Shown here piece after piece: positions 3-35,270 of a DNA stretch of 64,000 nucleotides. Source of the DNA: a virus. Its lineage: Duplodnaviria; Heunggongvirae; Uroviricota; Caudoviricetes. The position numbers and the translations under genes were made by a program. The stretch lies in the IMG/VR virus record IMGVR_UViG_3300047550_004303, one strand, 5' to 3'. The notes under the pieces are model-generated. The model made no database searches, was not told the DNA's origin, and saw only the letters and a list, made by a program, of their open reading frames with translations. Positions within the stretch are counted from its first letter, which is position 1, and each line of letters begins with the position of its first letter.

Positions 3-3000
3 ACTGAATTTATTCAAAGTTGGACATCAATTGCATCAGGTGCATCACATTCTGCTGCAATTAGAACAGACGGTGGTTTGTTTACTTGGGGAGCAGGAAC
101 AAGTGGTAGATTAGGTGATAATACTACAATTGATAGATCAAGCCCAGTACAAATAGGAACGAGCAGTTGGACTAGTGTAAGTGCCGGAAATGCACACACA
201 GCAGCAATAAGACAGGATGGATCATTATTTACTTGGGGAAGAGGTCTTGATGGACAATTAGGTGATGACGGTTCCATTAATAGATCAAGTCCCGTGCAAA
301 TTGGAACTAGTAGTTGGACAAGTGTGAGTGCTGGTTTTGCACATACTGCTGCAATCAGAAATGGTAGTTCATTATTTACTTGGGGATGCGGTCTATGTGG
401 TGGATTAGGTGATGGAACTACTATTAATAAGTTTAGTCCAGTACAAATTGGTACAAGCAGTTGGACAAGTGTAAGTGCAGGATTTTATAATACCGCTGCA
501 ATACGTTTAGATGGTGCATTGTTTACATGGGGATATGGAAGAGGAGGAAATTTAGGTTGGCTAACCACTGTTCAAAGTTGGACAACAATTTCATCCGGAG
601 TAGGGAATGTCGCCGCTATTAGATCAGATGGTGGTTTGTTTACTTGGGGAGCAGGTAGTTCGGGTAGATTAGGGACAAATGACATTATTGATAGATCAAG
701 TCCGGTACAAATAGGAACAAGTAGTTGGACTAGTGTAGATGCAGGGGCCACTCACGTTGCTGCAATACGAAGTGACGGAAGATTATTTACTTGGGGAGCA
801 GGTGGTGCAGGTCGTTTGGGAAACAATACTACAATTGATAGATCAAGTCCGGTACAAATAGGAACTAGTAGTTGGACAACAGTAAGTGCAGGATGTTTTC
901 ATACTGCGGCAGTAAGATTAGATGGTTCAATATTCACTTGGGGATGCGGTGCAACAGGTAGATTAGGAGACAGTAATACCGTTAATAGGTCTAGTCCAGT
1001 ACAAATTGGAACAAGTAGTTGGACTACCGTTAGCGCAGGAAATAACTTTACAGCAGCCACTAGAAATGACGGAAGACTATTTACATGGGGAACTGGAGGT
1101 TGCGGACAATTAGGATGGTTAACTGCTGTTCAAAGTTGGAACGCGATAGCATCAGGAAATGGACAAGTATTAGCTATTAGATCAGATGGTCTTTTGTTTA
1201 CGTGGGGATCAGGTGGTGCAGGTAGATTAGGAAGCGGAGACACTTTTGATAGGTCAAGCCCAGTACAAGTAGGTGTAAGCAGCTGGACATCAGTAAGTGC
1301 AGGATTTTCACATAGCACAGCTATAAGAAGTGATGGAAGATTATTTACTTGGGGTTCTAATAGTGTAGGGCAATTAGGAGACAACACAACCGTAAACAGA
1401 TCAAGTCCAGTACAGGTAGGAACAAGCAGTTGGACTAGTATCAGTGCAGGAACCTATAGCACAGCAGCAATAAGACAGGATGGTTCTTTATTCATTTGGG
1501 GATTCGGAACATCAGGTAGATTGGGTGATGGCGGTACACTAAATAGATCCAGTCCAGTACAACTTGGAACAAGTAGCTGGACCACTGTTAGTACAGGAAA
1601 TGGAAATACCGCAGCAATAAGACAGGATGGTGCATTATTTACATGGGGGGATAATGCATCAGGACAATTAGGAGAAGTAACAGCAGTATTAAGCTGGAAT
1701 GCAGTTTCTTTTGGTCGTTCTCATGTTACGGCTATAACAAATACTAACATATTATATGCTTGGGGATTAAATAACTATGGACAATTGGGTGATGGTACTA
1801 CAATAAATAGATCCAGTCCAGTGCAAATTGGAACAAGCAGTTGGACCAGTGTAAGTGCCGGAGTTGCACACACAGCCGCAATTAGAACAGACGGTGCTTT
1901 ATTTACTTGGGGAGCAGGTGGTGCAGGTAGATTAGGTGATAGCACAACTATTAATAGATCAAGCCCAGTACAAATCGGCACAAGTAGTTGGACTGCCGTA
2001 GCTGCAGGTGGTTCTCATACAGTAGCTACCAAATCGGATAGTTTGTTATTTACTTGGGGATTAAATAATTTCGGGCAAATGGGCGACGGTACTACAACAA
2101 GTAAATCAAGCCCAGTGCAAATTGGCACAAGTAGTTGGACTACTATAAGTGCAGGACTTCAAATGACTGCTGCGATAAGAAATGACGACGGTAGATTATT
2201 TACTTGGGGAGCAGGTTCAAATGGTAGATTGGGTGATGGCGGTACACTAAATAGATCCAGTCCAGTGCAAGTTGGAACGAGTAGTTGGACAGCCGTAAGC
2301 GCAGGACAAGCACATGTAGTAGCAATAAGGCAAGGTGGTTCATTATTTACTTGGGGATATGGAACAAGTGGTAGATTAGGTGATAATTCAATTATTGCTA
2401 GGTCAAGCCCAGTACAAGTAGGAACAAATAGCTGGACAGCAGTAAGCGCAGGAGAAGCGCATACTGCTGCAATAACAATTAATAATACTTTATTTACATG
2501 GGGAAGAGGACTTGACGGACAATTAGGAGACGGCACTTCAGTTAACAGATCAAGTCCAGTACTAATCGGTGCTAGTACTTGGACTAAAGTAAGCGCAGGG
2601 GGAAATAATACAGGAGTAATAGGACTATTATCATCTGATTTACAAATTACAGGTGCGGCAAATACTGGTCAATTAGGCAACAACTCAACTACAAGTAGAT
2701 CGTCATTGGTGTTAGTGGGCAGTATTGCTGTAGAACCAAGATCATCACCTGTGCAAGTTGGATCAAGTAGTTGGACAACAGTAAGTGCAGGCGGGGATCT
2801 GTTCACTGCTGCTATCCGTAACGATGGAGGCTTATTCACCTGGGGACATAATCTTTTCGGTCAACTAGGAGATAATTCAACTATAAATCGATCCATTCCA
2901 GTGCAAATTGGCAATTGTAGTTGGACTAGTGTAAGTGCAGGAGTACTTAATTTTACTTCAGCAATTCGTAATGATGGTTTACTATTTACATGGGGCTGTA

Positions 3001-6000
3001 ATGGTTTAGGAGCATTAGGAGACGGTACGACAGTTAGAAGATCAAGTCCAGTACAAATAGGTACCGGAAGTTGGACTAGTATAAGCGCAGGTTCTGCATC
3101 TATGTCGGCTATTGATAACAGCTCTGTTGCATATCTTTGGGGATATGGTACTTCAGGTAGAATAGGTGATAACACTAATATAACTAGATCAAGTCCAGTA
3201 GTATTAGGCAATATCAACCCATTGCTAGTTTCTTCTCCAGTGCAAGTAGGCACTAGTAGTTGGATAGCAATAAGTGCAGGATATAATTTTGCAGCAGCTA
3301 TAAATTCAAACAATTTACTTTTTACTTGGGGTTTAGGAGCTAACGGTAGATTAGGTGATGGAAATACCATAGATAGATCAATCCCCGCCCAAATAGGATC
3401 AAGCAGCTGGACATTTGTAAGCGCAGGTGAAAATTCATCAAATCCTGCTGCAATAAGAAGTGATGGTGCTTTATTTACCTGGGGATTCAATTCATCAGGT
3501 CAATTGGGTGATAATACTACTATTAACAGATCAAGTCCAGTGCAAATTGGAACAAGTAGTTGGACATCAGTAAGTGCAGGACAAGATTTTATGTCAGCAA
3601 TTGATAGTACCGCTGTAGCATATATTTGGGGTGAAGGAAGTTCAGGAAGAATAGGTAATAACACCAATATAAGCAACTCAACACCATTAATTTTAGGTAA
3701 TATAAATCCAGTACAGGTTTTTTCTCCAGTTCAAGTTGGAACCAGCAGTTGGACATCAGTAAGTGCGGGATGTTGTTTTGCAGCAGCAATTAGAACAGAC
3801 AGTGCATTATTTACTTGGGGTTTAGGTAGTTCAGGACGTTTAGGAGATGGCACAACTATTAGTAAATCAAGCCCAGTACAAATTGGAACAAGCAGTTGGA
3901 CATCTGTAAGTGCTGGCTTCACTCATACCTCTGCAATAAGAAGTGATGGTGCTTTATTTACCTGGGGATTAAATTCATCAGGTCAATTGGGTGATAATAC
4001 TACTATTAACAGATCAAGTCCGGTACAGATAGGAACAAGTAGTTGGACTACAATTAGTAGTGGTGGTAATTCAACTTTAGGACTAGAAATTGATAACACA
4101 TTATATGCTTGGGGATTAGGAACTTCAGGACAATTAGGTGATAATACAACTATCGCTAGATCAAGTCCAGTTGTATTAGGAGGTATACTAATAACTTCTT
4201 TTTCTAATCCAGTTCAAATTGGAAATAGCAGTTGGACATCTGTAAGTGCAGGTGCAACGCACACTGCTGCAATAAGACAAGATAATGGTTTATTTGTTTG
4301 GGGTGCAGGCAGTTCGGGTAGATTAGGGACAAACGACACCATTAATAGATCAAGTCCAGTGCAAATTGGAACAAGTAGCTGGACTACCGTAAATGCAGGT
4401 GGTACTCACACAGCAGCAATAAGAATTGATGGTTCATTATTTACCTGGGGATTCAATTCATCAGGACAAATAGGTGACAATACCACTATAACCAGATCAA
4501 GTCCAGTACAAATTGGAACAAGCAGTTGGACTAGTGTAAGTGCAGGTATTACTCACACAGCAGCAATAAAACAAGATAGCTTATTATTTACATGGGGAGC
4601 AAATGCATCAGGACAAATAGGTGACAACACTACAATCAATAGATCAAGTCCAGTACAAGTAGGAGGACAACCAATTGATACTTCATCCCCTAATCAAATA
4701 GGCACAAGTAGTTGGACATCCGTAAGTGCAGGTGCGTCTCATTCTATGGCAATAAGAAGTGATAAATTATTATTTGCATGGGGGAGTAATAATCTTGGTC
4801 AACTTGGGGACGGCACAATATTGTCCAGATCAAGCCCTATACAAATTGGATCAAGTAGTTGGACTAGTATAAGTGCAGGTGCATCACATACTGCGGCAAT
4901 AAGAAGTGACAATGCATTATTTGTATGGGGAAGTAACAGTTCAGGGCAAATAGGTGATGATACTACAATAAACAGATCAAGTCCAGTTCAATTAGGAACA
5001 AGCAGTTGGACTAGTGTCAGTGCCGGTAAAAATGGCCCCTTTACTGCTGCAATCAAAAATAATGGCTCATTATTTACATGGGGATTAAACAGTAGCGGAC
5101 GTTTGGGAGACGGAACTACGGTTAACCGTAGTAGTCCAGTACAAATTGGTTCAAGCAGTTGGACCGCTGTAACTGCAGGTTACATAAATGCACATGCTAT
5201 ACGAAGTGATGGATATTTATATACATGGGGAAGTAATAGATATGGACAATTTGGAAATACTGCACCTCTAACTTGGAAGAATTTATCTGTTGTCGTTAAC
5301 ACAGTATTAGCGATACGTAATGACGATTTATTGTTTAGTTGGGGCCTTAATGATTTTGGACAAGTAGGTGACAACACCAAAATCAATAGGTCGAGTCCAG
5401 TACAAATCGGAACAAGCAGTTGGACTGCTATTAGTCAAGGAACCAATGTTAGTTTAGCTATACGTATCGACGGGCGATTATTTGCATGGGGTAGAGGAAC
5501 TAACGGAGCATTGGGACAAGGTAACCAAATTGATTATTCTAGTCCAGTACAAATAGGAACCAGCAGTTGGATTGCAATTGCAGCAGCAACCGAACTTACA
5601 AGTTTTGCTATTCGCGTTGATGGGAGACTTTTTAGTTGGGGTGATAATAGTGTAGGGCAATTAGGTCAAGGTTCAGGAGTAGCATTTGACACTAGCCCAG
5701 TGAACATAGGAACCAGCAGTTGGACTCAAGTTTCAGCCGGACGCAGACATGCAATTGCTTTGCGAAGTGACGGGGCGTTATTTACCTGGGGATCAAATAC
5801 ATCAGGACAATTAGGTGACGGAACAACAATAAACAAAAACAGTCCAGTGCAAATTGGATCCAGTAGTTGGACCGCAATTAGTGCAGGAGGTTATAACTCC
5901 GGTGCAATTCGCGCTGATGGTGCATTATTTACCTGGGGATCAAATACATCAGGACAAATAGGAGATAATACAAGAACTACAAACTCTAGTCCTGTGCAGA

Positions 6001-6680
6001 TAGGAACAAATAGTTGGACAGCGGTAAACATATCATTTGGAGGTAGTACCTGGGCAATTAATAACACTAATTTGATATATGGATGGGGGAGCGATTATTG
6101 GGGAGATGGAACAACTAATACCCGTTCAAGTCCAGTACAAATAGGTACACAAAGTTGGACTGTAATTCAAAGTAATGGCGGAATCACATCAAATTCACTT
6201 TTATATATGTGGGGGGGAGGAGGGTCAGGACAAATAGGAAATAACTCAACTGTCACACAGACTACTTCAACACTCACTGTTTTAGGCGGAATAAGCCAAT
6301 CATCATCACCAATACTTGTTAATTTTAATAGTTGGCGTCAAGTTAATAGTAATGCTTCACACACCGCTGCAATACGTAGTGACTATACACTTTTTACATG
6401 GGGAGCAGGTACATCAGGTAGATTAGGTGACGGAACAACAATTGACAGATCAAGTCCAGTACAAATTGGATCCAGTAGTTGGACCGCAATTAGTGCAGGC
6501 ACAGCACATACTGCTGCAATTAGAACAGACGGTCTTTTGTTTGCTTGGGGAGCAGGTAGTTCAGGACGTTTAGGTACCCAAAATACCATAGATAGATCAA
6601 GTCCAGTATCAATAGGTAGTAATAGTTGGTCTGCGATAGGTGCAGGTGACACATTTACTTTAGGATTATTAAAGGCGTAA
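3..6680 (+). CDS. Giant RCC1/BLIP-II-repeat beta-propeller protein (5' truncated by window edge), probable virion fibre/decoration protein
   Basis: Frame is open from base 3 (TEFIQSWTSIASG...), upstream of the TTG at 78. About 44 copies of a ~49-aa repeat SWxxVSAGxxHTAAIRxDGxLFTWGxxxxGxLGDxTTINRSSPVQIGTS, matching RCC1-type repeats. Virion role is inferred from context. Confidence 0.9.
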   Translation, partial: TEFIQSWTSIASGASHSAAIRTDGGLFTWGAGTSGRLGDNTTIDRSSPVQIGTSSWTSVSAGNAHTAAIRQDGSLFTWGRGLDGQLGDDGSINRSSPVQIGTSSWTSVSAGFAHTAAIRNGSSLFTWGCGLCGGLGDGTTINKFSPVQIGTSSWTSVSAGFYNTAAIRLDGALFTWGYGRGGNLGWLTTVQSWTTISSGVGNVAAIRSDGGLFTWGAGSSGRLGTNDIIDRSSPVQIGTSSWTSVDAGATHVAAIRSDGRLFTWGAGGAGRLGNNTTIDRSSPVQIGTSSWTTVSAGCFHTAAVRLDGSIFTWGCGATGRLGDSNTVNRSSPVQIGTSSWTTVSAGNNFTAATRNDGRLFTWGTGGCGQLGWLTAVQSWNAIASGNGQVLAIRSDGLLFTWGSGGAGRLGSGDTFDRSSPVQVGVSSWTSVSAGFSHSTAIRSDGRLFTWGSNSVGQLGDNTTVNRSSPVQVGTSSWTSISAGTYSTAAIRQDGSLFIWGFGTSGRLGDGGTLNRSSPVQLGTSSWTTVSTGNGNTAAIRQDGALFTWGDNASGQLGEVTAVLSWNAVSFGRSHVTAITNTNILYAWGLNNYGQLGDGTTINRSSPVQIGTSSWTSVSAGVAHTAAIRTDGALFTWGAGGAGRLGDSTTINRSSPVQIGTSSWTAVAAGGSHTVATKSDSLLFTWGLNNFGQMGDGTTTSKSSPVQIGTSSWTTISAGLQMTAAIRNDDGRLFTWGAGSNGRLGDGGTLNRSSPVQVGTSSWTAVSAGQAHVVAIRQGGSLFTWGYGTSGRLGDNSIIARSSPVQVGTNSWTAVSAGEAHTAAITINNTLFTWGRGLDGQLGDGTSVNRSSPVLIGASTWTKVSAGGNNTGVIGLLSSDLQITGAANTGQLGNNSTTSRSSLVLVGSIAVEPRSSPVQVGSSSWTTVSAGGDLFTAAIRNDGGLFTWGHNLFGQLGDNSTINRSIPVQIGNCSWTSVSAGVLNFTSAIRNDGLLFTWGCNGLGALGDGTTVRRSSPVQIGTGSWTSISAGSASMSAIDNSSVAYLWGYGTSGRIGDNTNITRSSPVVLGNINPLLVSSPVQVGTSSWIAISAGYNFAAAINSNNLLFTWGLGANGRLGDGNTIDRSIPAQIGSSSWTFVSAGENSSNPAAIRSDGALFTWGFNSSGQLGDNTTINRSSPVQIGTSSWTSVSAGQDFMSAIDSTAVAYIWGEGSSGRIGNNTNISNSTPLILGNINPVQVFSPVQVGTSSWTSVSAGCCFAAAIRTDSALFTWGLGSSGRLGDGTTISKSSPVQIGTSSWTSVSAGFTHTSAIRSDGALFTWGLNSSGQLGDNTTINRSSPVQIGTSSWTTISSGGNSTLGLEIDNTLYAWGLGTSGQLGDNTTIARSSPVVLGGILITSFSNPVQIGNSSWTSVSAGATHTAAIRQDNGLFVWGAGSSGRLGTNDTINRSSPVQIGTSSWTTVNAGGTHTAAIRIDGSLFTWGFNSSGQIGDNTTITRSSPVQIGTSSWTSVSAGITHTAAIKQDSLLFTWGANASGQIGDNTTINRSSPVQVGGQPIDTSSPNQIGTSSWTSVSAGASHSMAIRSDKLLFAWGSNNLGQLGDGTILSRSSPIQIGSSSWTSISAGASHTAAIRSDNALFVWGSNSSGQIGDDTTINRSSPVQLGTSSWTSVSAGKNGPFTAAIKNNGSLFTWGLNSSGRLGDGTTVNRSSPVQIGSSSWTAVTAGYINAHAIRSDGYLYTWGSNRYGQFGNTAPLTWKNLSVVVNTVLAIRNDDLLFSWGLNDFGQVGDNTKINRSSPVQIGTSSWTAISQGTNVSLAIRIDGRLFAWGRGTNGALGQGNQIDYSSPVQIGTSSWIAIAAATELTSFAIRVDGRLFSWGDNSVGQLGQGSGVAFDTSPVNIGTSSWTQVSAGRRHAIALRSDGALFTWGSNTSGQLGDGTTINKNSPVQIGSSSWTAISAGGYNSGAIRADGALFTWGSNTSGQIGDNTRTTNSSPVQIGTNSWTAVNISFGGSTWAINNTNLIYGWGSDYWGDGTTNTRSSPVQIGTQSWTVIQSNGGITSNSLLYMWGGGGSGQIGNNSTVTQTTSTLTVLGGISQSSSPILVNFNSWRQVNSNASHTAAIRSDYTLFTWGAGTSGRLGDGTTIDRSSPVQIGSSSWTAISAGTAHTAAIRTDGLLFAWGAGSSGRLGTQNTIDRSSPVSIGSNSWSAIGAGDTFTLGLLKA

Positions 6681-6723
6681 CAAAATTTGAACTTCGTACA
6701 AAACTATAATGACCCAAAAAAAC

Positions 6724-6738
6724 TAAATACAATAAATA
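6724..6738 (+). promoter_or_regulatory. Two tandem T4-like late promoter boxes (TAAATA)
   Basis: TAAATA at 6724-6729 and 6733-6738 in the intergenic gap upstream of the ATG at 6766; AAGG SD at about 6754. Confidence 0.55.
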
Positions 6739-6765
6739 TATAAAAATTATACATAAGGTTAAAAT

Positions 6766-9700
6766 ATGGCCGGATTTAAAGTAAATGGCACTGATTTAGA
6801 TAATTTATTTGCACCTATAGGCACTACCAATAAAATTGCCGACGTAGGCTATAGAATTTCAGGCAATGATATATCTAATTTATACCTACCTGCTTCATGT
6901 GGTCTACCATATGGAACCACAAATTATAAAAAAACAGGGTCTGACATCGGTACATTATTTGCATCATTGACTTCGGTCGATGCATTTTTCCTTTATGCAT
7001 GGGGACAAAATAATTATGGAAAATTAGGAAGCATTCCTACAAGTTGGAATACTATAAGTGCAGGATACTGTCATTCAGCAGCAATACGCAGCGATGGTTC
7101 ACTATTTACTTGGGGAGTAGGTACAAGTGGTGCATTAGGTAACGCCAGTACAGTCAGTGAATCTAGCCCAATTCAAATTGGCGCTAGTAGCTGGACAAGT
7201 GTAAGTGCCGGTTTAAATTGGAATTTAGCCGTTCGTAATGATGGATCATTATTTGTTTGGGGAGCAAATGCATCAGGACAATTAGGTGATGGAACTACTG
7301 TAGATAAATCAAGTCCAATTCAAATAGGTACAAGTAGTTGGACATCTGTAAGTGCAGGAAGAACAGTAGCAGCAGGATTACTTTCTAATAAATTATTTAC
7401 TTGGGGATCTAATGATAGTGGACAATTAGGCTTAGGTGACACTACAAATAGATCAAGTCCAGTGCAAGTCGGCACCAATAATTGGACAAAAGTAAGTGCA
7501 GGAAGAGACCATATACTGGCTATTAGTGATACAAATAAACTTTGGGCTTGGGGGAACGGTGGTTCAGGGCAATTAGGTGATGGTACTGTAATAAATAGGT
7601 CAAGTCCAGTACAAATAGGATCTAATAATTGGGTAGATATAAGCGCAAGCCTTGGTAGTTTTTTTAGCACAGGAATAAGACAGGATAATTTACTATTTAC
7701 ATGGGGGGCAGGCTCATTTGGTCAATTAGGTATTGGATTAAGCAGCGGGGATAGATGTAGCCCTGTGCAAGTTGGTGCAAATACATGGTGTAAGGTTAGT
7801 GCTGGAGTAAATTTTGCAACAGCAATTACAACAGCAAATTTAATATTTGCATGGGGAACAGGAACTAACGGTAGGTTAGGAAATAACTCCACTATTGATA
7901 GATCAAGTCCTGTAGTAATAGGATCCAGTAATTGGACCGTAACAAGTTCAGGTGGATTTCACACGTTAGCCTTACTTAACAATAACACGGTATACACATG
8001 GGGATTAGGATCATCCGGTAGATTAGGTGATTTAAACACTGTTAACAGATCAAGTCCGGTACTAATAGGTTTTACAACTGTTAATAGATCAACCCCTTCG
8101 CAAATAGGAACAAACAGTTGGGTTTCAGTAAGTGCAGGACCAAGTCATGTTGCAGCAATTCGTAATGATAGATTACTATTTACATGGGGAAGAAATCTTG
8201 ACGGACAATTAGGCGATGATACTACAACTAACAGATCAAGCCCAGTACAAATTGGTACAAATAGTTGGGCAAATGTAAGTGTAGGACAAGCGCATACTGT
8301 TGGTATATTATTAGGAGGAAGATTATTTACTTGGGGATTCGGAGCAAATGGTAGATTGGGAGATAATTCTAATGTTAACAGGTCAAGTCCAGTACAGGTT
8401 GGCACAAGCTGTTGGATTAGTGTTAGCGCCGGACAGTATCATACTGCTGCAATAGCAGCCAATAGAAAACTATTTACTTGGGGTTGGGGAGCTAACGGTA
8501 GATTAGGTGATGAAACTACTGTGGACAAATCAAGTCCAGTACAAATAGGAACAAGCAGTTGGATTAGCGTGAGCGGAGGTGGTTCTCATACAGCAGCAAT
8601 TCGTAGTGACAATATTTTATTTACCTGGGGATTAAATACATCAGGACAATTAGGCACATGTACTGATGTTTATAGTTGGACCACAGTAAGTGCAGGTAAT
8701 GTCCATACTGCTGCCATACGAAGTGACGGAGCTTTATTTACTTGGGGAGCAGGTAGTTCAGGTAGATTAGGTGACGGAACAACAACCGACAGATCCAGTC
8801 CAATACAAATAGGCACAAGTAGTTGGACATCAGTAGGTGCTGGTGTATTTCATACTGGTGCTATTAGAGTTGATGGGAGATTATTTACTTGGGGTTTAGG
8901 AACATTAGGTAGATTAGGTGACGGCACAACCAATAGATCAAGTCCAATTCAAATTGGTGCAAGTAGTTGGACTACTATAAGTGCAGGAGCAGCACACACT
9001 ACTGCATTAAGAATTGATGGTGCTTTATTTACTTGGGGATATAATAGATTTGGGCAACTAGGTGACAATGCAACAGCCAACAGGTCAAGTCCAGTACAAA
9101 TAGGTATCGACAGTTGGATTACGGTAAGTGCTGGAGGAACTCATACAGCAGCAATTCGCAGCGACAATATTTTATTTACATGGGGAGTAGGTAGTTCAGG
9201 TAGATTAGGAAATGATTCTACTATTGACAGGTCAAGTCCAGTACAAATAGGTACCGGCAGTTGGATTACAGTAAGTGCTGGAGGAACTCATACAGCAGCA
9301 ATTCGCAACGACAATATTTTATTTACATGGGGAGTAGGTAGTTCAGGTAGATTAGGAAATGATTCTACTATTGACAGGTCAAGTCCAGTACAAATAGGAA
9401 CCAGTAGTTGGACATCAGTGAGTGCAGGTGGCACTCACACCGCTGCAATTAGATCAGACGGCGCATTATTTACTTGGGGTTTGTGGATTTCGGGACAATT
9501 AGGTGACAATGCAACAGCCAACAGGTCAAGTCCAGTACAAATAGGAACAAGTAGTTGGACTACGGTAAGTGCCGGAGGAACTCATACAGCAGCAATTCGT
9601 AGCGATAATATTTTATTTACCTGGGGAGCTAGGGGATATGGTCAATTGGGAATCGGAACTAGTGGTAACAATATATCAAGTCCAGTACAGGTCGGTGAAA

Positions 9701-10092
9701 ACATTTTATCAAGTGTTTCTAGTCCAGCACAGGTAGGTACAAACAGTTGGGTGTCCGAAACCGCAGGAGAGAACCATACTGCCGCTATACGAAGTGATTC
9801 ACTGCTATTTATATGGGGAGAAAACGTTTTCGGTCAAGTAGGAGACAACACTACGTTTAATAGATCAAGTCCAATACAAATCGGAACAAGTAGTTGGACA
9901 AGTGTGAATGCTGGATTTTCTTTTACCGCGGCAATTCGTAGTGACAATGCTTTGTTTACATGGGGACGTAATAATTTCGGACAAATAGGTGACAACACTA
10001 CAATCAATAGGTCAAGTCCAGTACAAATAGGAACAAGTAGTTGGACTATGGTTAGTACAGGCGGAAACACAACTTTTGGAATATTTTCATAA
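6766..10092 (+). CDS. RCC1-repeat beta-propeller protein (21 repeats, 3 propellers) with ~70-aa N-terminal module
   Basis: 1108-aa ORF with the same repeat as the upstream paralog. The N-terminus carries three copies of [F/Y]xxxGxD[L/I]xxL[F/Y]. Confidence 0.9.
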   Translation: MAGFKVNGTDLDNLFAPIGTTNKIADVGYRISGNDISNLYLPASCGLPYGTTNYKKTGSDIGTLFASLTSVDAFFLYAWGQNNYGKLGSIPTSWNTISAGYCHSAAIRSDGSLFTWGVGTSGALGNASTVSESSPIQIGASSWTSVSAGLNWNLAVRNDGSLFVWGANASGQLGDGTTVDKSSPIQIGTSSWTSVSAGRTVAAGLLSNKLFTWGSNDSGQLGLGDTTNRSSPVQVGTNNWTKVSAGRDHILAISDTNKLWAWGNGGSGQLGDGTVINRSSPVQIGSNNWVDISASLGSFFSTGIRQDNLLFTWGAGSFGQLGIGLSSGDRCSPVQVGANTWCKVSAGVNFATAITTANLIFAWGTGTNGRLGNNSTIDRSSPVVIGSSNWTVTSSGGFHTLALLNNNTVYTWGLGSSGRLGDLNTVNRSSPVLIGFTTVNRSTPSQIGTNSWVSVSAGPSHVAAIRNDRLLFTWGRNLDGQLGDDTTTNRSSPVQIGTNSWANVSVGQAHTVGILLGGRLFTWGFGANGRLGDNSNVNRSSPVQVGTSCWISVSAGQYHTAAIAANRKLFTWGWGANGRLGDETTVDKSSPVQIGTSSWISVSGGGSHTAAIRSDNILFTWGLNTSGQLGTCTDVYSWTTVSAGNVHTAAIRSDGALFTWGAGSSGRLGDGTTTDRSSPIQIGTSSWTSVGAGVFHTGAIRVDGRLFTWGLGTLGRLGDGTTNRSSPIQIGASSWTTISAGAAHTTALRIDGALFTWGYNRFGQLGDNATANRSSPVQIGIDSWITVSAGGTHTAAIRSDNILFTWGVGSSGRLGNDSTIDRSSPVQIGTGSWITVSAGGTHTAAIRNDNILFTWGVGSSGRLGNDSTIDRSSPVQIGTSSWTSVSAGGTHTAAIRSDGALFTWGLWISGQLGDNATANRSSPVQIGTSSWTTVSAGGTHTAAIRSDNILFTWGARGYGQLGIGTSGNNISSPVQVGENILSSVSSPAQVGTNSWVSETAGENHTAAIRSDSLLFIWGENVFGQVGDNTTFNRSSPIQIGTSSWTSVNAGFSFTAAIRSDNALFTWGRNNFGQIGDNTTINRSSPVQIGTSSWTMVSTGGNTTFGIFS
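9112..9405 (+). repeat. Near-identical 147-bp tandem duplication (two RCC1 repeats)
   Basis: 9112-9258 and 9259-9405 differ at only a handful of positions (agttggattac[g/a]gtaagtgctggaggaactcatacagcagcaattcgc...). Confidence 0.9.
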
Positions 10093-10134: not shown

Positions 10135-11187
10135 ATGCATTTAATTGACCAAGAACTTAATTTAATGATTCGTGGTAGATTTGAAGATGGTTGGAAAATT
10201 GCAGAAGAACTTGAACGTATCGATCCAACTGATCGTAGAGCTAAATTTAACCGTGGTTGGTTTCTCATCAATCAAGGTAAATGGCAAGAAGGGTTTCAAT
10301 GCTTAGAATACGGAAGATCACTTAACGTTTATGGTTCTCCAAAACTTCATACCACTAAACCAATTTGGGATGGAACAGATTTAACTGATAAAACTGTTAT
10401 TATCAACTTAGAAGCAGGATACGGCGATAACATCATACAAGCTAGGTTTGCAACAGAAGTCTGGCGGCGTGGGGGAAAATGTATACTATGTTGTGATAAA
10501 ACTGTACATTCAATCTTCATGCGTATTCCAGGTGTAACAGCTTGTATAACATTGCAAGAAGTACAATCAACACATCACGATTTTTGGGTTCCTGGTTTTA
10601 GTTGTAGTTGGATGTTTGGTCATACTGTTGATACTATACCCAACGAACCATATATTTTTGCAAAACCAGAAAGCGTTCAAGTTTGGAAAGAACTAATCAA
10701 AGGTGACAAACCAAAAATAGGTATTCGTTGGAGTGGCAATCCTAAATTTGAACATCAACAATTTAGAATATTTCCACCAGAAATGTTAATCAAAATTCAA
10801 AAAGAATTTCCACATTGTCAATGGTATTCACTACAACGTGATAGCGATCTAAGAGAACTTCCAGAAGGTATCAGTGATTTAAATCATATATTGATAAGTT
10901 GGGAAGACACAGCAGCATGTATTGAGAACCTAGACTTAGTAATATCATCATGCACAAGTATAGCTCATTTGGCTTCTGCAATGGGCAAGCCAACTTGGGT
11001 TATAGTTCCTATTCTTCCATATCATGTTTGGGCATACGGAGATAAACATAGTCCATGGTATACTGAAAATACAGTTGTGTTTAGACAGAAAAAATTTAGC
11101 AAGTGGGAAGAAACATTTACTGAATTAAAGGAAGAACTACACAAACTTTATCCTCAAAAAATTAATCAAGAACCTAAACAAGAGTAA
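10135..11187 (+). CDS. TPR-containing GT9-like (GT-B) glycosyltransferase
   Basis: N-terminal TPR-like helices (AKFNRGWFLINQGKWQEGF); EAGYGDNIIQARF and DLVISSCTSIAHLASAMGKPTW motifs typical of the TPR-GT9 family. Confidence 0.8.
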   Translation: MHLIDQELNLMIRGRFEDGWKIAEELERIDPTDRRAKFNRGWFLINQGKWQEGFQCLEYGRSLNVYGSPKLHTTKPIWDGTDLTDKTVIINLEAGYGDNIIQARFATEVWRRGGKCILCCDKTVHSIFMRIPGVTACITLQEVQSTHHDFWVPGFSCSWMFGHTVDTIPNEPYIFAKPESVQVWKELIKGDKPKIGIRWSGNPKFEHQQFRIFPPEMLIKIQKEFPHCQWYSLQRDSDLRELPEGISDLNHILISWEDTAACIENLDLVISSCTSIAHLASAMGKPTWVIVPILPYHVWAYGDKHSPWYTENTVVFRQKKFSKWEETFTELKEELHKLYPQKINQEPKQE

Positions 11188-11215: not shown

Positions 11216-12010
11216 ATGAAAACTTTACATTTTATTTCAGGCTTGCCACGCTCAGGATCTACACTAATCACAAATATTCTAAAACAGAATCCCAATATTC
11301 ATGGAGAAGCAGTTAGTTCACTTGCATCTATTTTTGGGACTGTAAACGCTAATTGGGGTTCTATTGAATCTAATCAAGAATACCCCAACTATGATGCAAA
11401 AAAAGGCGTACTAACAGGTATACTACAGGGTTATTACTCACATATCAATAAGCCTATAATTTTTGACAAGGACAGAGGTTGGATTCCAATACTAGCCGCA
11501 GTTGAAGAAGTAATGCAATGTCAGGTTAAAATTATTGTATGTGTCAGAAATCCTGCAGAAATATTAGCCAGCTTTGAACGTCTACGGAAAGAAAATCCAT
11601 TGTTCTTTACAAGGGCCGACCTCTCTCTAAGAGAAGGTTCAAGTATCGCAGGTAGAGCATATTACTATGCAGGTCCAGATGGTGCTATGGGAATTGCACA
11701 TAGACATATCAAAGATGCAATAATAATGGGTTACTTAGATAGGTTTTTGTTTGTAGACTACAATAGGTATTGCAGTAGCCCTAAAGCACAAACAAGAAGA
11801 ATATATGATTTCTTTGAAATACCTCATTTTGATCATGATTTTCAAAACATAAAACAAGATGAAATGTATAACGATCATGCAGTGGGACTACCAAACTTAC
11901 ACAGAATTAAACCAGAAATTAACAAGACAACTGTAAATTGTGTTGAGTATTTAGGGTTAGATTTATACGAGCAATACAACAGAGAAATCTTCTGGAATGC
12001 ATGGATATAA
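11216..12010 (+). CDS. Sulfotransferase
   Basis: 5'-PSB loop FISGLPRSGSTL and 3'-PB motif VRNPAEILASF. Confidence 0.85.
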   Translation: MKTLHFISGLPRSGSTLITNILKQNPNIHGEAVSSLASIFGTVNANWGSIESNQEYPNYDAKKGVLTGILQGYYSHINKPIIFDKDRGWIPILAAVEEVMQCQVKIIVCVRNPAEILASFERLRKENPLFFTRADLSLREGSSIAGRAYYYAGPDGAMGIAHRHIKDAIIMGYLDRFLFVDYNRYCSSPKAQTRRIYDFFEIPHFDHDFQNIKQDEMYNDHAVGLPNLHRIKPEINKTTVNCVEYLGLDLYEQYNREIFWNAWI

Positions 12011-12585
12011 ATTTATTTTTTCCCACTTTGGTAGGATCTGCATCCAATCCTACTCATCTTGAAATACAACAAGAGTTAGTTAGTCATTGCATTAAACTAA
12101 AACAAACTGTTGAATCAGGTGGGCAAGGTTGGTTATCAAATAAAACATATAACACCAGTAATGGCAAATATGAAATTTTTCGTGATAACAAGTTTGCTAA
12201 TTTAAACAATTGGGTAAAAGATCAAATCATTGAATACTGCACAAAAGCAGACATTGATACATCATCTTTATCTAACAATGGTTCTTGGTTTAATATCTAT
12301 GAACGAAATGACTTTCAAGAAAATCATGTTCATCCAACAAGTGTAGTATCAGCAATTTATATTTTGACCTGCAGTGAAGATGGTGCAAGAGTGTTTTTTA
12401 ATAGTCCAATAAGTAATATGTACTATGTTAACAAAACAAACAAAAATCAACAAACCGTAGATCAAATAATATGCAAAAGTATTCCAGGTACATTGCTTGT
12501 ATTTCCTAGCTATCTTCTTCATGCAGTAGAAAGGCATGAATCTAGTGACATTAGAATAAGTCTATCTTACAACTTCAAACAATAA
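12001..12585 (+). CDS. 2OG-Fe(II) oxygenase
   Basis: HVH..., FPSYLLHAV and RISLSYN motifs of the phage/bacterial putative 2OG-Fe(II) oxygenase family. Confidence 0.8.
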   Translation: MDINLFFPTLVGSASNPTHLEIQQELVSHCIKLKQTVESGGQGWLSNKTYNTSNGKYEIFRDNKFANLNNWVKDQIIEYCTKADIDTSSLSNNGSWFNIYERNDFQENHVHPTSVVSAIYILTCSEDGARVFFNSPISNMYYVNKTNKNQQTVDQIICKSIPGTLLVFPSYLLHAVERHESSDIRISLSYNFKQ

Positions 12586-12586
12586 T

Positions 12587-13171
12587 ATGGCTAATGAAAT
12601 GCAAAAGTCTGTTATAAGACGGTTAAACGATTCACGTTTTACTAGAGAATATTTTGTAGGTAGGGGAATTGATATAGGTGCAGGTGAAGATAGCTTAGAA
12701 AAATATAAAGAGTTTTTCCCATTAATACAACACATTGATTCATGGGATATACAGCACGGTGATGCACAATATTTGGTTGATGTTCCAGATAATTTATTTG
12801 ATTTTGCTGTTAGCAGTCATTGTTTAGAACATATGTTGGCCCCGCATATAGCATTGAAAAATTGGCTAAGAGTTATTAAAAGTAAAGGATATTTGATCAT
12901 TACTGTTCCAGATGAAGATTTATACGAACAACAAATGTGGCCCTCTGCTTTTAACGGCGATCATAAATTTTCATTTACTATAAACAAAGACAAATCTTGG
13001 AGCCCAAAAAGCATTAACATTTTTGATTTGCTTTCTACAGTCAAAAATCAAGTATCAATTAAAAAAATAGAATTACTAGATAATCTATATTACAAATCTA
13101 TACACGGTGTTGATCAAACAAGATATACTTTTTCAGAAAGTGCAATAGAGATAGTTTTACAAAAATTGTAA
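12587..13171 (+). CDS. Class I SAM-dependent methyltransferase
   Basis: Motif I GIDIGAG; FDFAVSSHCLEH; LRVIKSKGYLIITVP. Confidence 0.8.
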   Translation: MANEMQKSVIRRLNDSRFTREYFVGRGIDIGAGEDSLEKYKEFFPLIQHIDSWDIQHGDAQYLVDVPDNLFDFAVSSHCLEHMLAPHIALKNWLRVIKSKGYLIITVPDEDLYEQQMWPSAFNGDHKFSFTINKDKSWSPKSINIFDLLSTVKNQVSIKKIELLDNLYYKSIHGVDQTRYTFSESAIEIVLQKL

Positions 13172-13190
13172 TTTACATACCAAAAATATT

Positions 13191-14372
13191 ATGTTAGATA
13201 ATTTAATTGAAGGTGCTAAGTTTTTGTTTGAAAACAAACGCTATAAAGATTCAGCACAAGTTTTAAAAATGACTTCTGAATTTATTTCAAATCCAATAAT
13301 TTTGGATAAAATTTACGCAAACATGAGAATGTGTTATTTTTTATCCAATGATGTTCCAAATGCATTTAAAGTATTAGAACTACAAGAAAACCTTCAAGTG
13401 AACGATAGTTTTGAACTAAAACGTGACAAAGCTAATTTTTTACGATATCTTAATCGTCATGAAGAAGCATATAACACAGCAAAAGAAATTTCAGATGATC
13501 CAACTAGATGTTTGGCACTTAGTTGGTTTTTACATAAAGAAGGTAAAACCAAAGAAGCATTTGCAATTACTGAACAAGCTAGGACTAATTCATATTGGTG
13601 GAAAAGAGAACCTAACTATAGATATAAACTTTGGAAAGGTTCTAAAGTAAAAACATTGGTAATAGCAGAAGAATCTGGTTTTGGAGATCAAATAATTTTT
13701 GCTAGATATATACCCATGCTAAAAGAACTATGCGATGAATTATATTACGATGGCACAGGACTAACTAAAACTTTTTGTAGAAATTTTGACATCAAACCAA
13801 TGACAGAATTGAACAAATTTGACAACGATATTTACCTGATACCAATAATGAGTTTGGCGTATGTGTTGGGTATTGAACAGCCTACATCATCTACCTACTT
13901 AACCGCAGATTCTAGTCTAATAGAAATGTACAACAACATATATCCCAAAACTAAAAAAAGAATAGGATTATGTGTTCAGGGAGAAAAGACTCATGTTGAA
14001 ACAAATCTAAGAAAATTACCACTACATGAACTTGCAAGTAAATTACAAAATTATGGAGAAGTAATTAATTTACAAAAAGAAATTGATGAAACTCATGATG
14101 CTATAAGATATATCAATTTTGATTCTTGGGAAGATACATTAGCTTTAATAAGTACATGCGATGTAGTGGTTACTTGCGATACCAGTATTAGTCATGCTGC
14201 CTCAGCTTTAGGCATAAAAACAATAGTATTAATTCATGCTGCTGCATATTTTACATGGAATCATAATCAAGATTTAGGCAAATCAGAATGGTATGATAAT
14301 GCATATTGCATACATCAGGATTATCCATGTGATTGGTCAGGTGCAATAACTAAATGTTTAACTTTACTATGA
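13191..14372 (+). CDS. TPR-containing GT9-like glycosyltransferase (second paralog)
   Basis: Helical TPR-like N-terminus; EESGFGDQIIFARY; DVVVTCDTSISHAASALG. Confidence 0.75.
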   Translation: MLDNLIEGAKFLFENKRYKDSAQVLKMTSEFISNPIILDKIYANMRMCYFLSNDVPNAFKVLELQENLQVNDSFELKRDKANFLRYLNRHEEAYNTAKEISDDPTRCLALSWFLHKEGKTKEAFAITEQARTNSYWWKREPNYRYKLWKGSKVKTLVIAEESGFGDQIIFARYIPMLKELCDELYYDGTGLTKTFCRNFDIKPMTELNKFDNDIYLIPIMSLAYVLGIEQPTSSTYLTADSSLIEMYNNIYPKTKKRIGLCVQGEKTHVETNLRKLPLHELASKLQNYGEVINLQKEIDETHDAIRYINFDSWEDTLALISTCDVVVTCDTSISHAASALGIKTIVLIHAAAYFTWNHNQDLGKSEWYDNAYCIHQDYPCDWSGAITKCLTLL

Positions 14373-15031
14373 AAAATTTATTCTATCACAGTTACAATCT
14401 AGACGTTTCTCAGGCATATATCATTCATGTGCCTAATAACCAACTTTCCGTTGAACTTGCAAACAGATGTTTAGAAAGTTGTAAAAAGATAAATTACAAT
14501 GCTTCATTGTATGAAGGTTTCGATGGCACAGGAAAAGAAATTATTGTGCCGGAACATATCAAAAATCAAAGTTGGTATAAGTGGTTAAAAATTACTGATC
14601 ATTATCAAAGTTTAGCAGAGGTTGCCTGTAGTTTAAGCCATATTTCATTGTGGGTCAAATGTATGGAACAAGACCAACCATTGGTAATTTTAGAGCATGA
14701 TGCAATAATGGTAAAACCCTACACAAGACATGAAATTTACAACGGGATAGTTTATTTGGGTTCGCAAGATGATTTGAGAAATCCAAAAAAATATGACAAT
14801 ATTATTCCTGGCTTCAGTGCAATTAATCAAAATTGGAATTTTATTAACAGGGCACATGCATATTCTATAGATCCTGCATCAGCAAGAAAATTATTTACCA
14901 ACGTGTTAGATAGGGGTATATACGAGAGTGCAGATGTAATGATTAAGGCAGATGACGTTGCAATTATCCAAACTGGATTTTATGCATATGATTTACCAGG
15001 CGAAACAATTATTAAAGTAAGGAAAAAATAA
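14369..15031 (+). CDS. GT25-family glycosyltransferase
   Basis: ACSLSHISLW and LVILEHDA motifs; ATG at 14369 overlaps the upstream TGA (ATGA coupling), so it is preferred over 14354. Confidence 0.7.
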   Translation: MKNLFYHSYNLDVSQAYIIHVPNNQLSVELANRCLESCKKINYNASLYEGFDGTGKEIIVPEHIKNQSWYKWLKITDHYQSLAEVACSLSHISLWVKCMEQDQPLVILEHDAIMVKPYTRHEIYNGIVYLGSQDDLRNPKKYDNIIPGFSAINQNWNFINRAHAYSIDPASARKLFTNVLDRGIYESADVMIKADDVAIIQTGFYAYDLPGETIIKVRKK

Positions 15032-15033
15032 AT

Positions 15034-15630
15034 ATGACACCAGAATCGACAAAACTAAACATGGGCTGTGGTTTTAAAAAGTTATTTGACCATTGGAATG
15101 TTGACATTGAACCAAAATGTAATCCAGATCAAGTACTTGATTTAGATCAAACACCCTGGCCATTTGAAGACAACTTTTTTACAAAAATTACTTGTGATAA
15201 CATCTTAGAACATTTAGGTCAAAATCCCAAAGTTTTTACCAATATAATCAAAGAAATGTATCGTGTTAGTCAAGATAAAGCAGAATGGTATATTTGTGTA
15301 CCACATCATCGTTGTGATTTGTTTTGGGATGATTATACTCATGTACGACCTCTTTCTGCTAAAACATTTAAAATGTTTGATCAAAAGTTTAACTATGACA
15401 CTATTCAACGTGGACTAAGTGAAAGTACATTTGGAATTTATCATTCGGTAGATTTAGACGTATATGATGCTACATATAACATTATTCCTTATTGGAGTTC
15501 ACAAGTAGAACAAGGTATGATGGGAAACAAAGAACTAGATATTAAACTAAACACAATGTCAAACATATGCGAGACATTGAACATTTTTATACGTGTTCAC
15601 AAACCAGGTAGATTTGAACATTTAGTTTAA
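15034..15630 (+). CDS. SAM-dependent methyltransferase (type 11-like)
   Basis: KLNMGCG motif I; DLDQTPWPFEDN; ILEHL; EMYRV. Confidence 0.75.
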   Translation: MTPESTKLNMGCGFKKLFDHWNVDIEPKCNPDQVLDLDQTPWPFEDNFFTKITCDNILEHLGQNPKVFTNIIKEMYRVSQDKAEWYICVPHHRCDLFWDDYTHVRPLSAKTFKMFDQKFNYDTIQRGLSESTFGIYHSVDLDVYDATYNIIPYWSSQVEQGMMGNKELDIKLNTMSNICETLNIFIRVHKPGRFEHLV

Positions 15631-15631
15631 T

Positions 15632-16363
15632 ATGTGGCATGTCTCTGACAAAATCAGAAGAAACGTTTTAGTTTCTTCTGATCAAGGATTAATGATTGTT
15701 AATAGATTTGACCACAATCAAAATATGGTTGGTAATGGACAATTCATTTTAGATCATGGTAATATTTGCACAGTAGAAGCAAATGCATGTATAAATGCTA
15801 TTCGTCACATTGAAAAACCAATCATATTTGATATTGGAGCAAACATAGGTGCATTCACTACTTGGATGTCAACTTACTTTCCAAATGGTAAAATTTATAG
15901 TTTTGAACCACAACGATTAGTTTTTCAAATGCTATGTGGTAATTTAGCAATCAACAATTTATTCAATGTACATGCGTATAACATGGCATTGGGGAAAGAA
16001 AATTCTAGAATAGAATTCTTAGAACCTAATTACAATCAACCAAATGATTTTGGAACTTTCAGTTTAGTTAACGACACTATAAATGAAAAATCTGACCGAT
16101 CCATCATTGATCTTTGTACATTAGACGCATTTGTAAATGGTTTCAATATAACAAATATTGATCTCATTAAAGTTGATGTTGAAGGAATGGATATTGATGT
16201 ACTACAAGGTGCAAAAACAACTATTGAACGTTTCAAACCTGTAATTTTCGTAGAATACTTTGATAATAATCGTTCAATTAAAGAAGAATTAGAATCTATT
16301 TTTAATCAATTGAATTACAGTATAGAGATTATAGGCAATAACATTTTAGGAATAAGCAAATGA
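15632..16363 (+). CDS. FkbM-family methyltransferase
   Basis: IFDIGANIG, SFEPQ, IKVDVEGMD, PVIFVE motifs. Confidence 0.85.
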   Translation: MWHVSDKIRRNVLVSSDQGLMIVNRFDHNQNMVGNGQFILDHGNICTVEANACINAIRHIEKPIIFDIGANIGAFTTWMSTYFPNGKIYSFEPQRLVFQMLCGNLAINNLFNVHAYNMALGKENSRIEFLEPNYNQPNDFGTFSLVNDTINEKSDRSIIDLCTLDAFVNGFNITNIDLIKVDVEGMDIDVLQGAKTTIERFKPVIFVEYFDNNRSIKEELESIFNQLNYSIEIIGNNILGISK

Positions 16364-17175
16364 ACGAAAAAATCAAAATCAATTATGCTCTTCAGATGTG
16401 TGATGTAAGAAGTTACCAAGGTAATAAAAGATTTTGCACCGATAACAGGACTGAACTATCAAAAAAATCTTTGGTATCTTTTTTGAATTCTATTAATTTT
16501 TGTATTAACAAAGAGCCTAAAACTTTTCACGAGGTTAAAATTTTTGCAGACGATTGTTCTGACGAGTTAAAAACATATATTGATAATTGCGTTGAAAAAA
16601 ACATATCAGAACAATTAAGTATTGAAGTCGAACATTTAAACAAAGCAGGCATAGCTAACAGTATTCAATATTGTTATGAATGGTTAAAAGACAATGGTTC
16701 AAATTTAGTTTATCAAGTACAAGATGATTATATTTTTACTGAGCCAGCACTTTATCATTCAATTGATATGTTTTACCAATTATATCAAAACTACAATACA
16801 CATCCAATTATCTGCCCATACATAGATCCTGATTTTATGAGAAATTACAAAGGTAGGTCTGTACCTAGATTAATTGAATTAGGTAAGCACAGTTATTGGT
16901 GTCAGGTTTATGACACTAGTTGCAGTTTTTTAACTAGTCAACATCAATTTGTACAACATTTAGATTTATATGATGTTTTTTACGACTTGATTAGAAAAAA
17001 AATTATAAATGGAAACGTCATTGATTTAGAAAACAAATCATTAAATTATATGTTTACACAAAGAGGTGTGTTAGGAGTTACTCCCATCAATGGATTAACT
17101 TTTCATATGCAAACTGATTCAGAAAAAGATCCATATATAGATTGGAAACCAATTTGGGATAGTATAATCATATGA
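16360..17175 (+). CDS. Putative GT-A fold glycosyltransferase
   Basis: IFADDCS and VYQVQDDY (DxD-like) motifs; cluster context. Confidence 0.55.
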   Translation: MNEKIKINYALQMCDVRSYQGNKRFCTDNRTELSKKSLVSFLNSINFCINKEPKTFHEVKIFADDCSDELKTYIDNCVEKNISEQLSIEVEHLNKAGIANSIQYCYEWLKDNGSNLVYQVQDDYIFTEPALYHSIDMFYQLYQNYNTHPIICPYIDPDFMRNYKGRSVPRLIELGKHSYWCQVYDTSCSFLTSQHQFVQHLDLYDVFYDLIRKKIINGNVIDLENKSLNYMFTQRGVLGVTPINGLTFHMQTDSEKDPYIDWKPIWDSIII

Positions 17176-18540: not shown

Positions 18541-18543
18541 ATT

Positions 18544-21348: not shown

Positions 21349-21351
21349 TTG

Positions 21352-22251: not shown

Positions 22252-22260
22252 GGAAAAAGT

Positions 22261-35262: not shown

Positions 35263-35270
35263 GTATTTAT
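35263..35270 (-). promoter_or_regulatory. Late promoter ATAAATAC
   Basis: Minus strand reads ATAAATACATT-ATG. Confidence 0.65.

Follow-up and report, generated by a model that had tools for sequence, protein, structure and literature searches.

A 64,000-nucleotide stretch of viral DNA assigned to the Caudoviricetes (IMG/VR record IMGVR_UViG_3300047550_004303; the whole stretch is hereafter called the window) begins inside the gene of a giant protein made of RCC1 repeats, and short junctions interrupt its repeat array in a regular order. The question raised by this locus is whether the repeats form propellers that follow one another along the chain, or propellers that are inserted into one another. 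We put at roughly four in five the probability that the RCC1 repeats of this very large protein, which comes from a phage of the T4-like cyanophage type and probably forms a virion appendage, are organised in seven-bladed propellers by recursive domain insertion and not sequentially. The junctions follow a grammar that is general to the family, and confident structure predictions show one level of nesting; nesting at the deeper levels is suggested by the grammar and by the paralogy of the successive shells.

Junctions of the repeat array and their grammar in the family

Positions 3-6680 of the window form a single open frame of 2225 codons, the 5' end of which runs off the window. Tandem repeats of about 50 amino acids (aa), typical of RCC1 and RCC1-like domains, match Pfam families above the curated thresholds along the whole open reading frame (ORF): PF25390 (WD40_RLD) with 1483 bits, PF00415 (RCC1) with 1204 bits in 35 stretches, and PF13540 (RCC1_2) with 676 bits. 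We parsed the protein into 45 RCC1 repeats, numbered from r1, of 49 aa each, with four strand motifs per repeat, namely W (SWTxVSAG), H (HTAAIR), F (LFTWG..GxLG), and P (SSPVQIG). Ten junctions interrupt the array, in addition to the linker TEFIQ at the window start. Three classes of repeat can be distinguished by the segment that follows the GxLG motif: (i) a normal repeat, in which this segment has 16 aa; (ii) an opener (r4, r8, r12, and r35), in which the repeat is shortened to 38-39 aa and ends in GxLG plus a linker of 5-6 aa, while the stretch DxTTxNRSSPVQIGTS, i.e., the P strand, is missing; (iii) a closer (r19, r22, r25, r28, r31, and r42), in which the repeat has 59-64 aa and the segment 29-30 aa, with a linker of 5-7 aa followed by a second SSPVQxG. 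The ORF and its junctions are as follows.

3..6680, + strand: 5'-truncated ORF of the giant RCC1-repeat protein, 2225 aa and 45 repeats in the window (translation and Pfam)
3..17, + strand: opening linker TEFIQ, cut by the window start (repeat parse)
558..575, + strand: opening linker WLTTVQ (repeat parse)
1116..1133, + strand: opening linker WLTAVQ (repeat parse)
1674..1691, + strand: opening linker EVTAVL (repeat parse; predicted confidence dips to 84)
2721..2741, + strand: closing linker SIAVEPR (repeat parse; predicted confidence dips to 84)
3210..3230, + strand: closing linker NINPLLV (repeat parse)
3699..3719, + strand: closing linker NINPVQV (repeat parse)
4182..4202, + strand: closing linker GILITSF (repeat parse)
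4665..4682, + strand: closing linker GQPIDT (repeat parse)
5256..5270, + strand: opening linker NTAPL (repeat parse)
6288..6302, + strand: closing linker GISQS (repeat parse)

With openers written as left brackets and closers as right brackets, the protein reads (4(4(4(7)3)3)3)3)4(7)3. A sequence-only reading of the same DNA had proposed this bracket structure, with levels of seven repeats, openers spaced by 558/558 nucleotides (nt), closers spaced by 489/489/483/483 nt, and a separate pair, NTAPL (5256) and GISQS (6288), that encloses seven repeats. Upon re-parsing, all opener and closer coordinates and all spacings were exact, every level that is complete in the window held seven repeats, and the separate pair was found to enclose r36-r42. 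The junction pattern is far beyond chance when the sums to seven are compared with two kinds of shuffle.

This comparison was made across the family. Homologues were gathered by three word-indexed protein searches and one profile search; repeat cores were located with a 33-residue W-H-F profile, linkers were measured between successive cores, and bracket strings were reduced inside-out. Across the family, the length of the inter-repeat linker is trimodal, with modes at about 6, 16-17, and about 30 aa. In the 405 homologues, a total of seven is reached by 212 of 364 closed levels at height 1, 59 of 73 at height 2, 33 of 34 at height 3, 13 of 15 at height 4, and 8 of 8 at height 5. For a set of 343 proteins, two shuffles served as controls, in which either the run lengths or the order of the junctions were permuted. 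The numbers of levels summing to seven at heights 2, 3, 4, and 5 were 45, 25, 11, and 6, compared to shuffle means of 1.6-3.7, 0.1-0.4, approximately 0, and approximately 0, respectively. The split points differ among family members (2+5, 3+4, 4+3, 5+2, and 6+1), and the 33 proteins with at least three levels represent 31 distinct architectures. The bracket logic that had been proposed for homologues was, in short, found again in 405 relatives, with levels totalling seven far above the shuffles. That the flanks of a seven-repeat unit always total seven would have no explanation under a sequential arrangement, and the sequence grammar argues strongly for recursive insertion over at least three levels.

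About one quarter of the relatives are devoid of any special junction and consist of 14, 15, 21, 22, or 56 uniform repeats; therefore, special junctions are not generally required by multi-propeller RCC1 proteins. The profile search, which covered 1.84 billion representatives, returned further giant relatives and no additional 4(7)3 units.

Several homologues deserve mention in their own right. Foreign domains of about 260-290 aa are present in P0015, P0028, P0034, P0035, P0043, P0045, P0345, and P0352, apparently in guest-bearing inter-blade connections; several of these proteins have a Pfam listing for PF13385 (Laminin_G_3), and some of them have branched nests of at least five levels. The homologue P0351 (6624 aa) contains openers in a long run and no closers, 4(3(r4(3(r4(3..., and lies off the sum-to-seven grammar; it may have another propeller size or another junction type. 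Relatives of the P0373 and P0356 type read 7)7)7)7)7, with a long junction after each seven repeats, or consist of 15, 22, or 56 uniform repeats. Relatives with uniform arrays, e.g., the protein encoded at 6131-8233 of the Synechococcus phage BUCT-ZZ01 locus (L011), keep a lone strand at the N terminus and a half repeat at the C terminus.

Predicted structure of one level and the deeper shells

The two-level unit (aa 378-1071), i.e., one seven-repeat unit with the flanks that bracket it, was modelled with AlphaFold2 (AF2). The alignment used (A5, obtained by filtering of A4) contained 106 natural collinear rows, each with an opener, seven repeats, and a closer; an earlier alignment (A2), in which whole units were mixed with bare seven-repeat rows, was misregistered by MAFFT and was discarded. 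The mean predicted local distance difference test score (pLDDT) was 96.5, with at least 95.5 for all five models, and the predicted template modelling score (pTM) was 0.76. The pLDDT dips (to 84) solely at the linkers EVTAVL and SIAVEPR, and is about 97 in the flanks. According to DSSP, the middle contains 28 strands, and the flanks contain 15 + 13 = 28.

VIA-align placed the whole of UVR8 (345 of 373 residues, Z 56.2, root mean square deviation (rmsd) 1.3 A, 30% identity) on model residues 184-530, which is exactly the unit between EVTAVL and SIAVEPR; the flanks are residues 1-180 and 537-694. Sequential propellers in this fragment would have boundaries near 1-343 and 344-694. Foldseek gave template modelling (TM) scores against UVR8 of 0.87-0.91 by target and 0.49 by query. 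Multi-propeller RCC1 proteins from AFDB and BFVD, when aligned collinearly, gave poor superpositions (TM 0.22-0.30, rmsd 25-40 A), and among the matches listed from ESM Atlas, AFDB clusters, and BFVD there was no model that matches both propellers together. As modelled, a contiguous complete guest lies between two host segments, and each ring has seven four-stranded blades, judging from the fit of the inner unit to UVR8 and from the 28 strands in the middle and 28 in the flanks.

The two flanks were also given to ESMFold2 as separate chains (aa 378-557 and aa 914-1071), which are 356 residues apart in the sequence. They were predicted to associate with an ipSAE interface score of 0.83, compared to 0.00 for the best of three controls; at least 97% of contacts agreed between runs, with a partner pLDDT of at least 88. 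The mark applied is attained by 58 of 80 solved complexes and by 2 of 110 mismatched pairs, a calibration that is rough only, since a custom alignment was used here. In model numbering, contacts occur at both ends of both chains (1-17 with 649-694, and 151-180 with 537-560), and the strands at the start of the N-part make contact with the final repeat and the final strand of the C-part; contacts at both ends of both chains imply a closed ring. The prediction shows 4 + 3 blades modelled as one ring, and not binding in a cell; the pass may reflect likeness to solved RCC1 propellers. By prediction, then, the two host segments fold as one domain when given as separate chains, and presumably also within the single chain.

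The sequence-only reading had suggested discontinuous propellers of 4 + 3 blades and had recommended folding fragments of two and three propellers. The two-level model, the co-folding of the flanks, and the family grammar support that suggestion, with the folding test covering one level; sequential contiguous propellers, named there as the contrary outcome, are not seen in the two-level model. The three-propeller part of the recommendation gave an uninterpretable model, described below.

Taken together with the bracket parse, these data give the following assignment of levels, numbered from the outermost propeller (L0) to the innermost one (L5).

1692..2720, + strand: innermost propeller L5, seven contiguous repeats r13-r19, aa 564-906 (bracket parse; AF2 residues 184-530, aa 561-907, superpose on UVR8)
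1134..1673, + strand: propeller L4 N-part, blades 1-4, r9-r12, aa 378-557 (parse; co-folds with the C-part, ipSAE 0.83 versus control 0.00)
2742..3209, + strand: propeller L4 C-part, resumed SSPVQVG strand and blades 5-7, r20-r22, aa 914-1069 (parse, two-chain prediction, and AF2)
576..1115, + strand: propeller L3 N-part, r5-r8, aa 192-371 (bracket grammar; junctions collinear with the three-level nest of homologue P0055)
3231..3698, + strand: propeller L3 C-part, r23-r25, aa 1077-1232 (parse; collinearity with P0055)
18..557, + strand: propeller L2 N-part, r1-r4, aa 6-185 (grammar)
3720..4181, + strand: propeller L2 C-part, r26-r28, aa 1240-1393 (grammar)
4203..4664, + strand: propeller L1 C-part, r29-r31, aa 1401-1554, with its N-part upstream of the window (grammar)
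4683..5255, + strand: outermost propeller L0, middle part, SSPNQIG strand and r32-r35, aa 1561-1751 (parse; analogy with the downstream paralogue and P0055)
5271..6287, + strand: second guest propeller of L0, seven contiguous repeats r36-r42, aa 1757-2095 (bracket parse)
6303..6677, + strand: outermost propeller L0, C-terminal part, r43-r44 and the final half repeat, aa 2101-2225 (parse; analogy with the paralogue and P0055)
6766..10092, + strand: complete paralogue, 1108 aa, grammar 1(7)4(7)2 + half (73-aa head piece, lone N-terminal strand, two guest propellers in one host)

On this assignment, nesting would be complete at four levels within the window (L5 inside L4 inside L3 inside L2), which also carries the C-part of L1, most of L0, and the second guest of L0. 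The shells are paralogous, with identities of 67-71% among the N-parts and 60-68% among the C-parts. No order of duplication could be recovered from the shell-to-shell identities; nest depth probably grew by the addition of whole shells. The blades that precede closers are often degenerate: r19, r22, r25, and r42 score 7, 24, 29, and 10 bits with the core hidden Markov model, compared to a mean of 47. They recur at intervals of three and not seven repeats, as expected if these are the terminal blades of nested units.

Two complete proteins bear on the deeper and the outermost levels. The full-length homologue P0055 (1807 aa) reads 1(7)3(4(4(7)3)3)3. Its three-level nest is collinear with L3-L5 of the giant protein, at 57% identity and with four of the four junctions in register; IMG/VR relatives have identities no higher than 45%. 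Exact-pattern scans of viral, genome, and metagenome contigs gave no match, no phage record was nearly identical, and the downstream paralogue had no database entry. The paralogue encoded downstream in the window consists, in this order, of the head piece, a lone F strand, an opener, seven repeats, a closer, four repeats, an opener, seven repeats, a closer, and two repeats plus a W-H half. Its outer ring has exactly 28 strands when the lone N-terminal strand is counted, and the outer ring of P0055 also needs such a strand. The head piece has no Pfam family, and its sole PHROG match is of unknown function. The part of L0 inside the window has 27 strands; a lone N-terminal strand upstream should supply the 28th. 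By analogy, L0 may be closed by a lone N-terminal F strand beside a small head piece; the strand counts of the paralogue and P0055 fit ring closure by strands from both chain ends. This outermost propeller, with a lone N-terminal strand joined to C-terminal strands, is presumably RCC1-like.

A mechanism can be proposed from these features. The guest propeller begins at the W strand and ends at the P strand, which are the limits of the crystallised UVR8 core, so that the termini of the guest would lie side by side in one blade. Termini sharing one blade would let the guest plug into a host loop via two short linkers. Two linkers of 5-7 residues would splice the guest into the F-to-P connection after host blade 4, which would leave the host without a P strand at the opener and give it a second P strand at the closer. 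Each guest would in turn host the next propeller. With linkers of only 5-7 residues, the end of the host N-part and the start of its C-part should be spatial neighbours, and hence, by induction, the parts should pair in bracket order. Folding would proceed inside-out: the innermost propeller would be finished first, and each shell would close with the synthesis of its C-part. If the analogy with the paralogue holds, a single propeller, L0, would contain the two chain ends together with the presumed attachment module, and the nest would project outward from it; we infer that L0, with both chain ends and the head piece, serves as the anchor. The overall shape of the array is a conjecture, and the linear, mechanically robust stalk that has been suggested is speculation.

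Alternative readings and the genomic setting

Several points weigh against recursive nesting or limit the weight of the data above. The homologues are kin, so that the sum-to-seven counts do not represent independent events. Two pieces, the N-part of L1 and the L0 closing strand, fall outside the window. Although natural contiguous sequences, the rows of A5 were chosen with the same bracket grammar, and the selection was not blind. Closure of the outer ring in the single-chain AF2 model is inferred via strand count, pLDDT, pTM, and the two-chain prediction. The support from structure prediction covers one nesting level only. The three-level fragment (aa 188-1236), modelled by AF2 with an alignment of two sequences, yielded a pLDDT of 52, solenoid-like chance matches, and no propeller match, a result that is uninformative and no evidence against nesting. 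Finally, a blade-by-blade comparison of contiguous and split units gave no diagonal that would mark positional homology (53.7% versus 51.9% identity); the repeats are homogenised, and the comparison supports neither side. It should be noted, as a matter of method, that the two-row alignment (window 564-3710) led to a low-confidence solenoid-like model, and about 100 architecture-matched rows (window 1134-3215) led to a pLDDT of 96.5.

The alternative that survives best leaves the architecture as it is and assigns it a different role, i.e., decoration of the capsid, a protein-binding scaffold that is secreted or stays inside the cell, or a carrier of the glycan modifications encoded nearby. The matching PHROG families are labelled merely "regulator of chromosome condensation", the head piece matches only a PHROG of unknown function, and a large sugar-modification gene cluster follows the gene, all of which would be compatible with such a role. 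We consider it less likely than not, given that the genes sit amid tail, baseplate, and fibre genes and that relatives adjoin a tail-fibre chaperone gene or a tail fibre gene. Specifically, the window encodes baseplate wedge and hub/lysozyme genes and virion proteins, and the nearest named phages belong to the Kyanoviridae. The P0055 gene lies directly 3' of a Phage_tail_APC (tail-fibre assembly chaperone) gene, beside genes for T4 gp13, gp15, and the sheath, and the BUCT-ZZ01 relative lies directly after a tail fibre gene; the location in a tail, baseplate, or fibre module, as expected of an appendage, is therefore seen at all three loci. From this gene context, our best guess, which we hold to be somewhat better than even, is an appendage for multivalent binding to the host surface.

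A gene of about 345-350 aa without a Pfam family lies directly 3' of the RCC1 gene both in the window (10135-11187, + strand) and at the P0055 locus (L012, 15457-16494); this neighbour, conserved at both loci, could encode a partner or a modifying enzyme. At the P0055 locus, as in the window, a sulfotransferase gene comes next. In the window, a run of sugar and small-molecule modification genes (11216-23226, + strand) is located directly downstream of the two RCC1 genes, with two sulfotransferases, a 2OG-Fe(II) oxygenase, several methyltransferases including one of the FkbM type, a family 25 glycosyltransferase, and a DegT-type aminotransferase. At the P0055 locus, which comes from another T4-like phage, an RCC1 giant is likewise accompanied by sulfotransferase, methyltransferase, and glycosyltransferase genes. 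Elsewhere in the window (35270-52303, - strand), an ORF of 5677 aa adjoins a baseplate wedge gene, and its N-terminal 4101 residues have no Pfam match.

A second alternative restricts nesting to the innermost one or two levels, such that the outer shells pair otherwise or stay open as half-propellers that assemble between fibre subunits. Deeper levels were not folded successfully, the N-parts and the C-parts (67-71% and 60-68% identical, respectively) are nearly interchangeable in sequence, and phage fibres are commonly oligomers; nevertheless, pairing of neighbouring N-parts would give 8 blades and that of neighbouring C-parts would give 6. The sum to seven also holds at heights 3-5 with unequal splits (33/34, 13/15, and 8/8), P0055 keeps the three-level nest junction for junction, and each part is joined to the adjoining ends of its guest by linkers of just 5-7 residues, which would force the bracket partner to be the spatial neighbour. 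We regard this restricted form as improbable. Least of all can we credit beads on a string, in which the 45 repeats would fold as sequential seven-repeat propellers and the junctions would be ordinary loop-length variants: many relatives have 14, 15, 21, 22, or 56 uniform repeats that may be tandem propellers, and 7)7)7)7 architectures occur, but the AF2 model of the 14-repeat fragment has its complete propeller at 184-530 and not at 1-343 or 344-694, guest flanks total seven at every height and with any split point far above the shuffles, degenerate terminal blades recur at three-repeat intervals, and multi-propeller proteins superpose badly in collinear alignment.

Implications and comparison with known systems

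Recursive nesting of propellers, which we prefer, has implications beyond this protein. It appears likely to us, with somewhat less assurance than the nesting itself, that a large family of environmental phage appendage proteins is built by a general and evolvable rule, the insertion of a whole propeller at one defined loop. The rule would generate tree-like arrays reaching nine propellers or more, with five to six levels, branches, and foreign lectin-like domains in the same loops; it would entail inside-out folding and would keep both chain ends in a single anchoring propeller, which together would constitute an architecture class undescribed for large repeat domains. If the nest is real at all levels, a closed repeat domain of 340 residues acts as host and guest over five or six levels, and these modules far exceed in size those of the one known deep case, SI3 of RNA polymerase. 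The ring of a four-blade N-part could close only after up to about 1,500 more residues had been added, and until then the N-part would stay unfolded or open, which would make these proteins an attractive system for the study of co-translational folding and chaperone dependence. A design rule would also follow, namely entry of the guest at the F-to-P connection, with the guest termini sharing one blade. With the grammar, thousands of viral-metagenome giants labelled "alpha-tubulin suppressor-like RCC1" could be read as defined propeller trees, and it suggests that phages enlarge a host-binding appendage, or vary it, through the gain or exchange of whole shells.

Known propellers resemble the parts of the giant protein, and differ from it in the way these parts are connected. 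Each seven-repeat unit is similar to UVR8 (PDB 6XZL, 4DNW) by sequence (E 1e-49), and the modelled inner unit by fold. UVR8, RCC1 (1A12), and the RCC1-like domains of HERC2 have one contiguous propeller per domain, whereas the propellers of the giant protein would be mostly discontinuous, with a guest after blade 4. Human UBR5 (PDB 8P83, 8D4X) shares with it an RCC1-type propeller from which the chain leaves and to which it returns; in the VIA-align superposition, UBR5 chain residues 44-873 are spanned for 252 aligned. The guests in UBR5 are small unrelated domains, at one level and without recursion.

Among phage proteins, the RCC1-repeat proteins of PHROG 7220, 4219, and 16766 belong to the same repeat family as the giant protein. 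The "BNR repeat domain protein" of Synechococcus phage BUCT-ZZ01, a member of the Kyanoviridae, is 47% identical to the paralogue; it differs in having 15 uniform repeats and no opener or closer junctions. In the muzzle protein of crAss-like phages, Ig-like (immunoglobulin-like) domains are placed between the propeller blades of a tail protein (PMC10172136); in contrast to the giant protein, the guests have another fold and there is a single level. In the literature on nested, inserted, or discontinuous propellers, including the phage RCC1 family, we found no report of same-fold, whole-propeller nesting.

The only precedent known for recursive same-fold insertion concerns far smaller domains, those of SI3 in the beta' subunit (rpoC2) of cyanobacterial RNA polymerase, where HABAS/SBHM (sandwich-barrel hybrid motif) modules recur within one another in up to six levels (PMC13114784; PMC11515920). 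These modules are described as exchanging secondary-structure elements at times (PMC11515920). The logic of construction is the same in the two cases, and their depths would be equal, provided that L1 and L0 are closed by the upstream part. SI3 consists of small modules in an essential enzyme, whereas the giant protein would consist of closed propellers of 340 residues in a protein encoded in the structural region of a phage genome. Moreover, unlike SI3, the family of the giant protein uses one defined inter-blade insertion site, and the depth and branching of the predicted nests vary among relatives.

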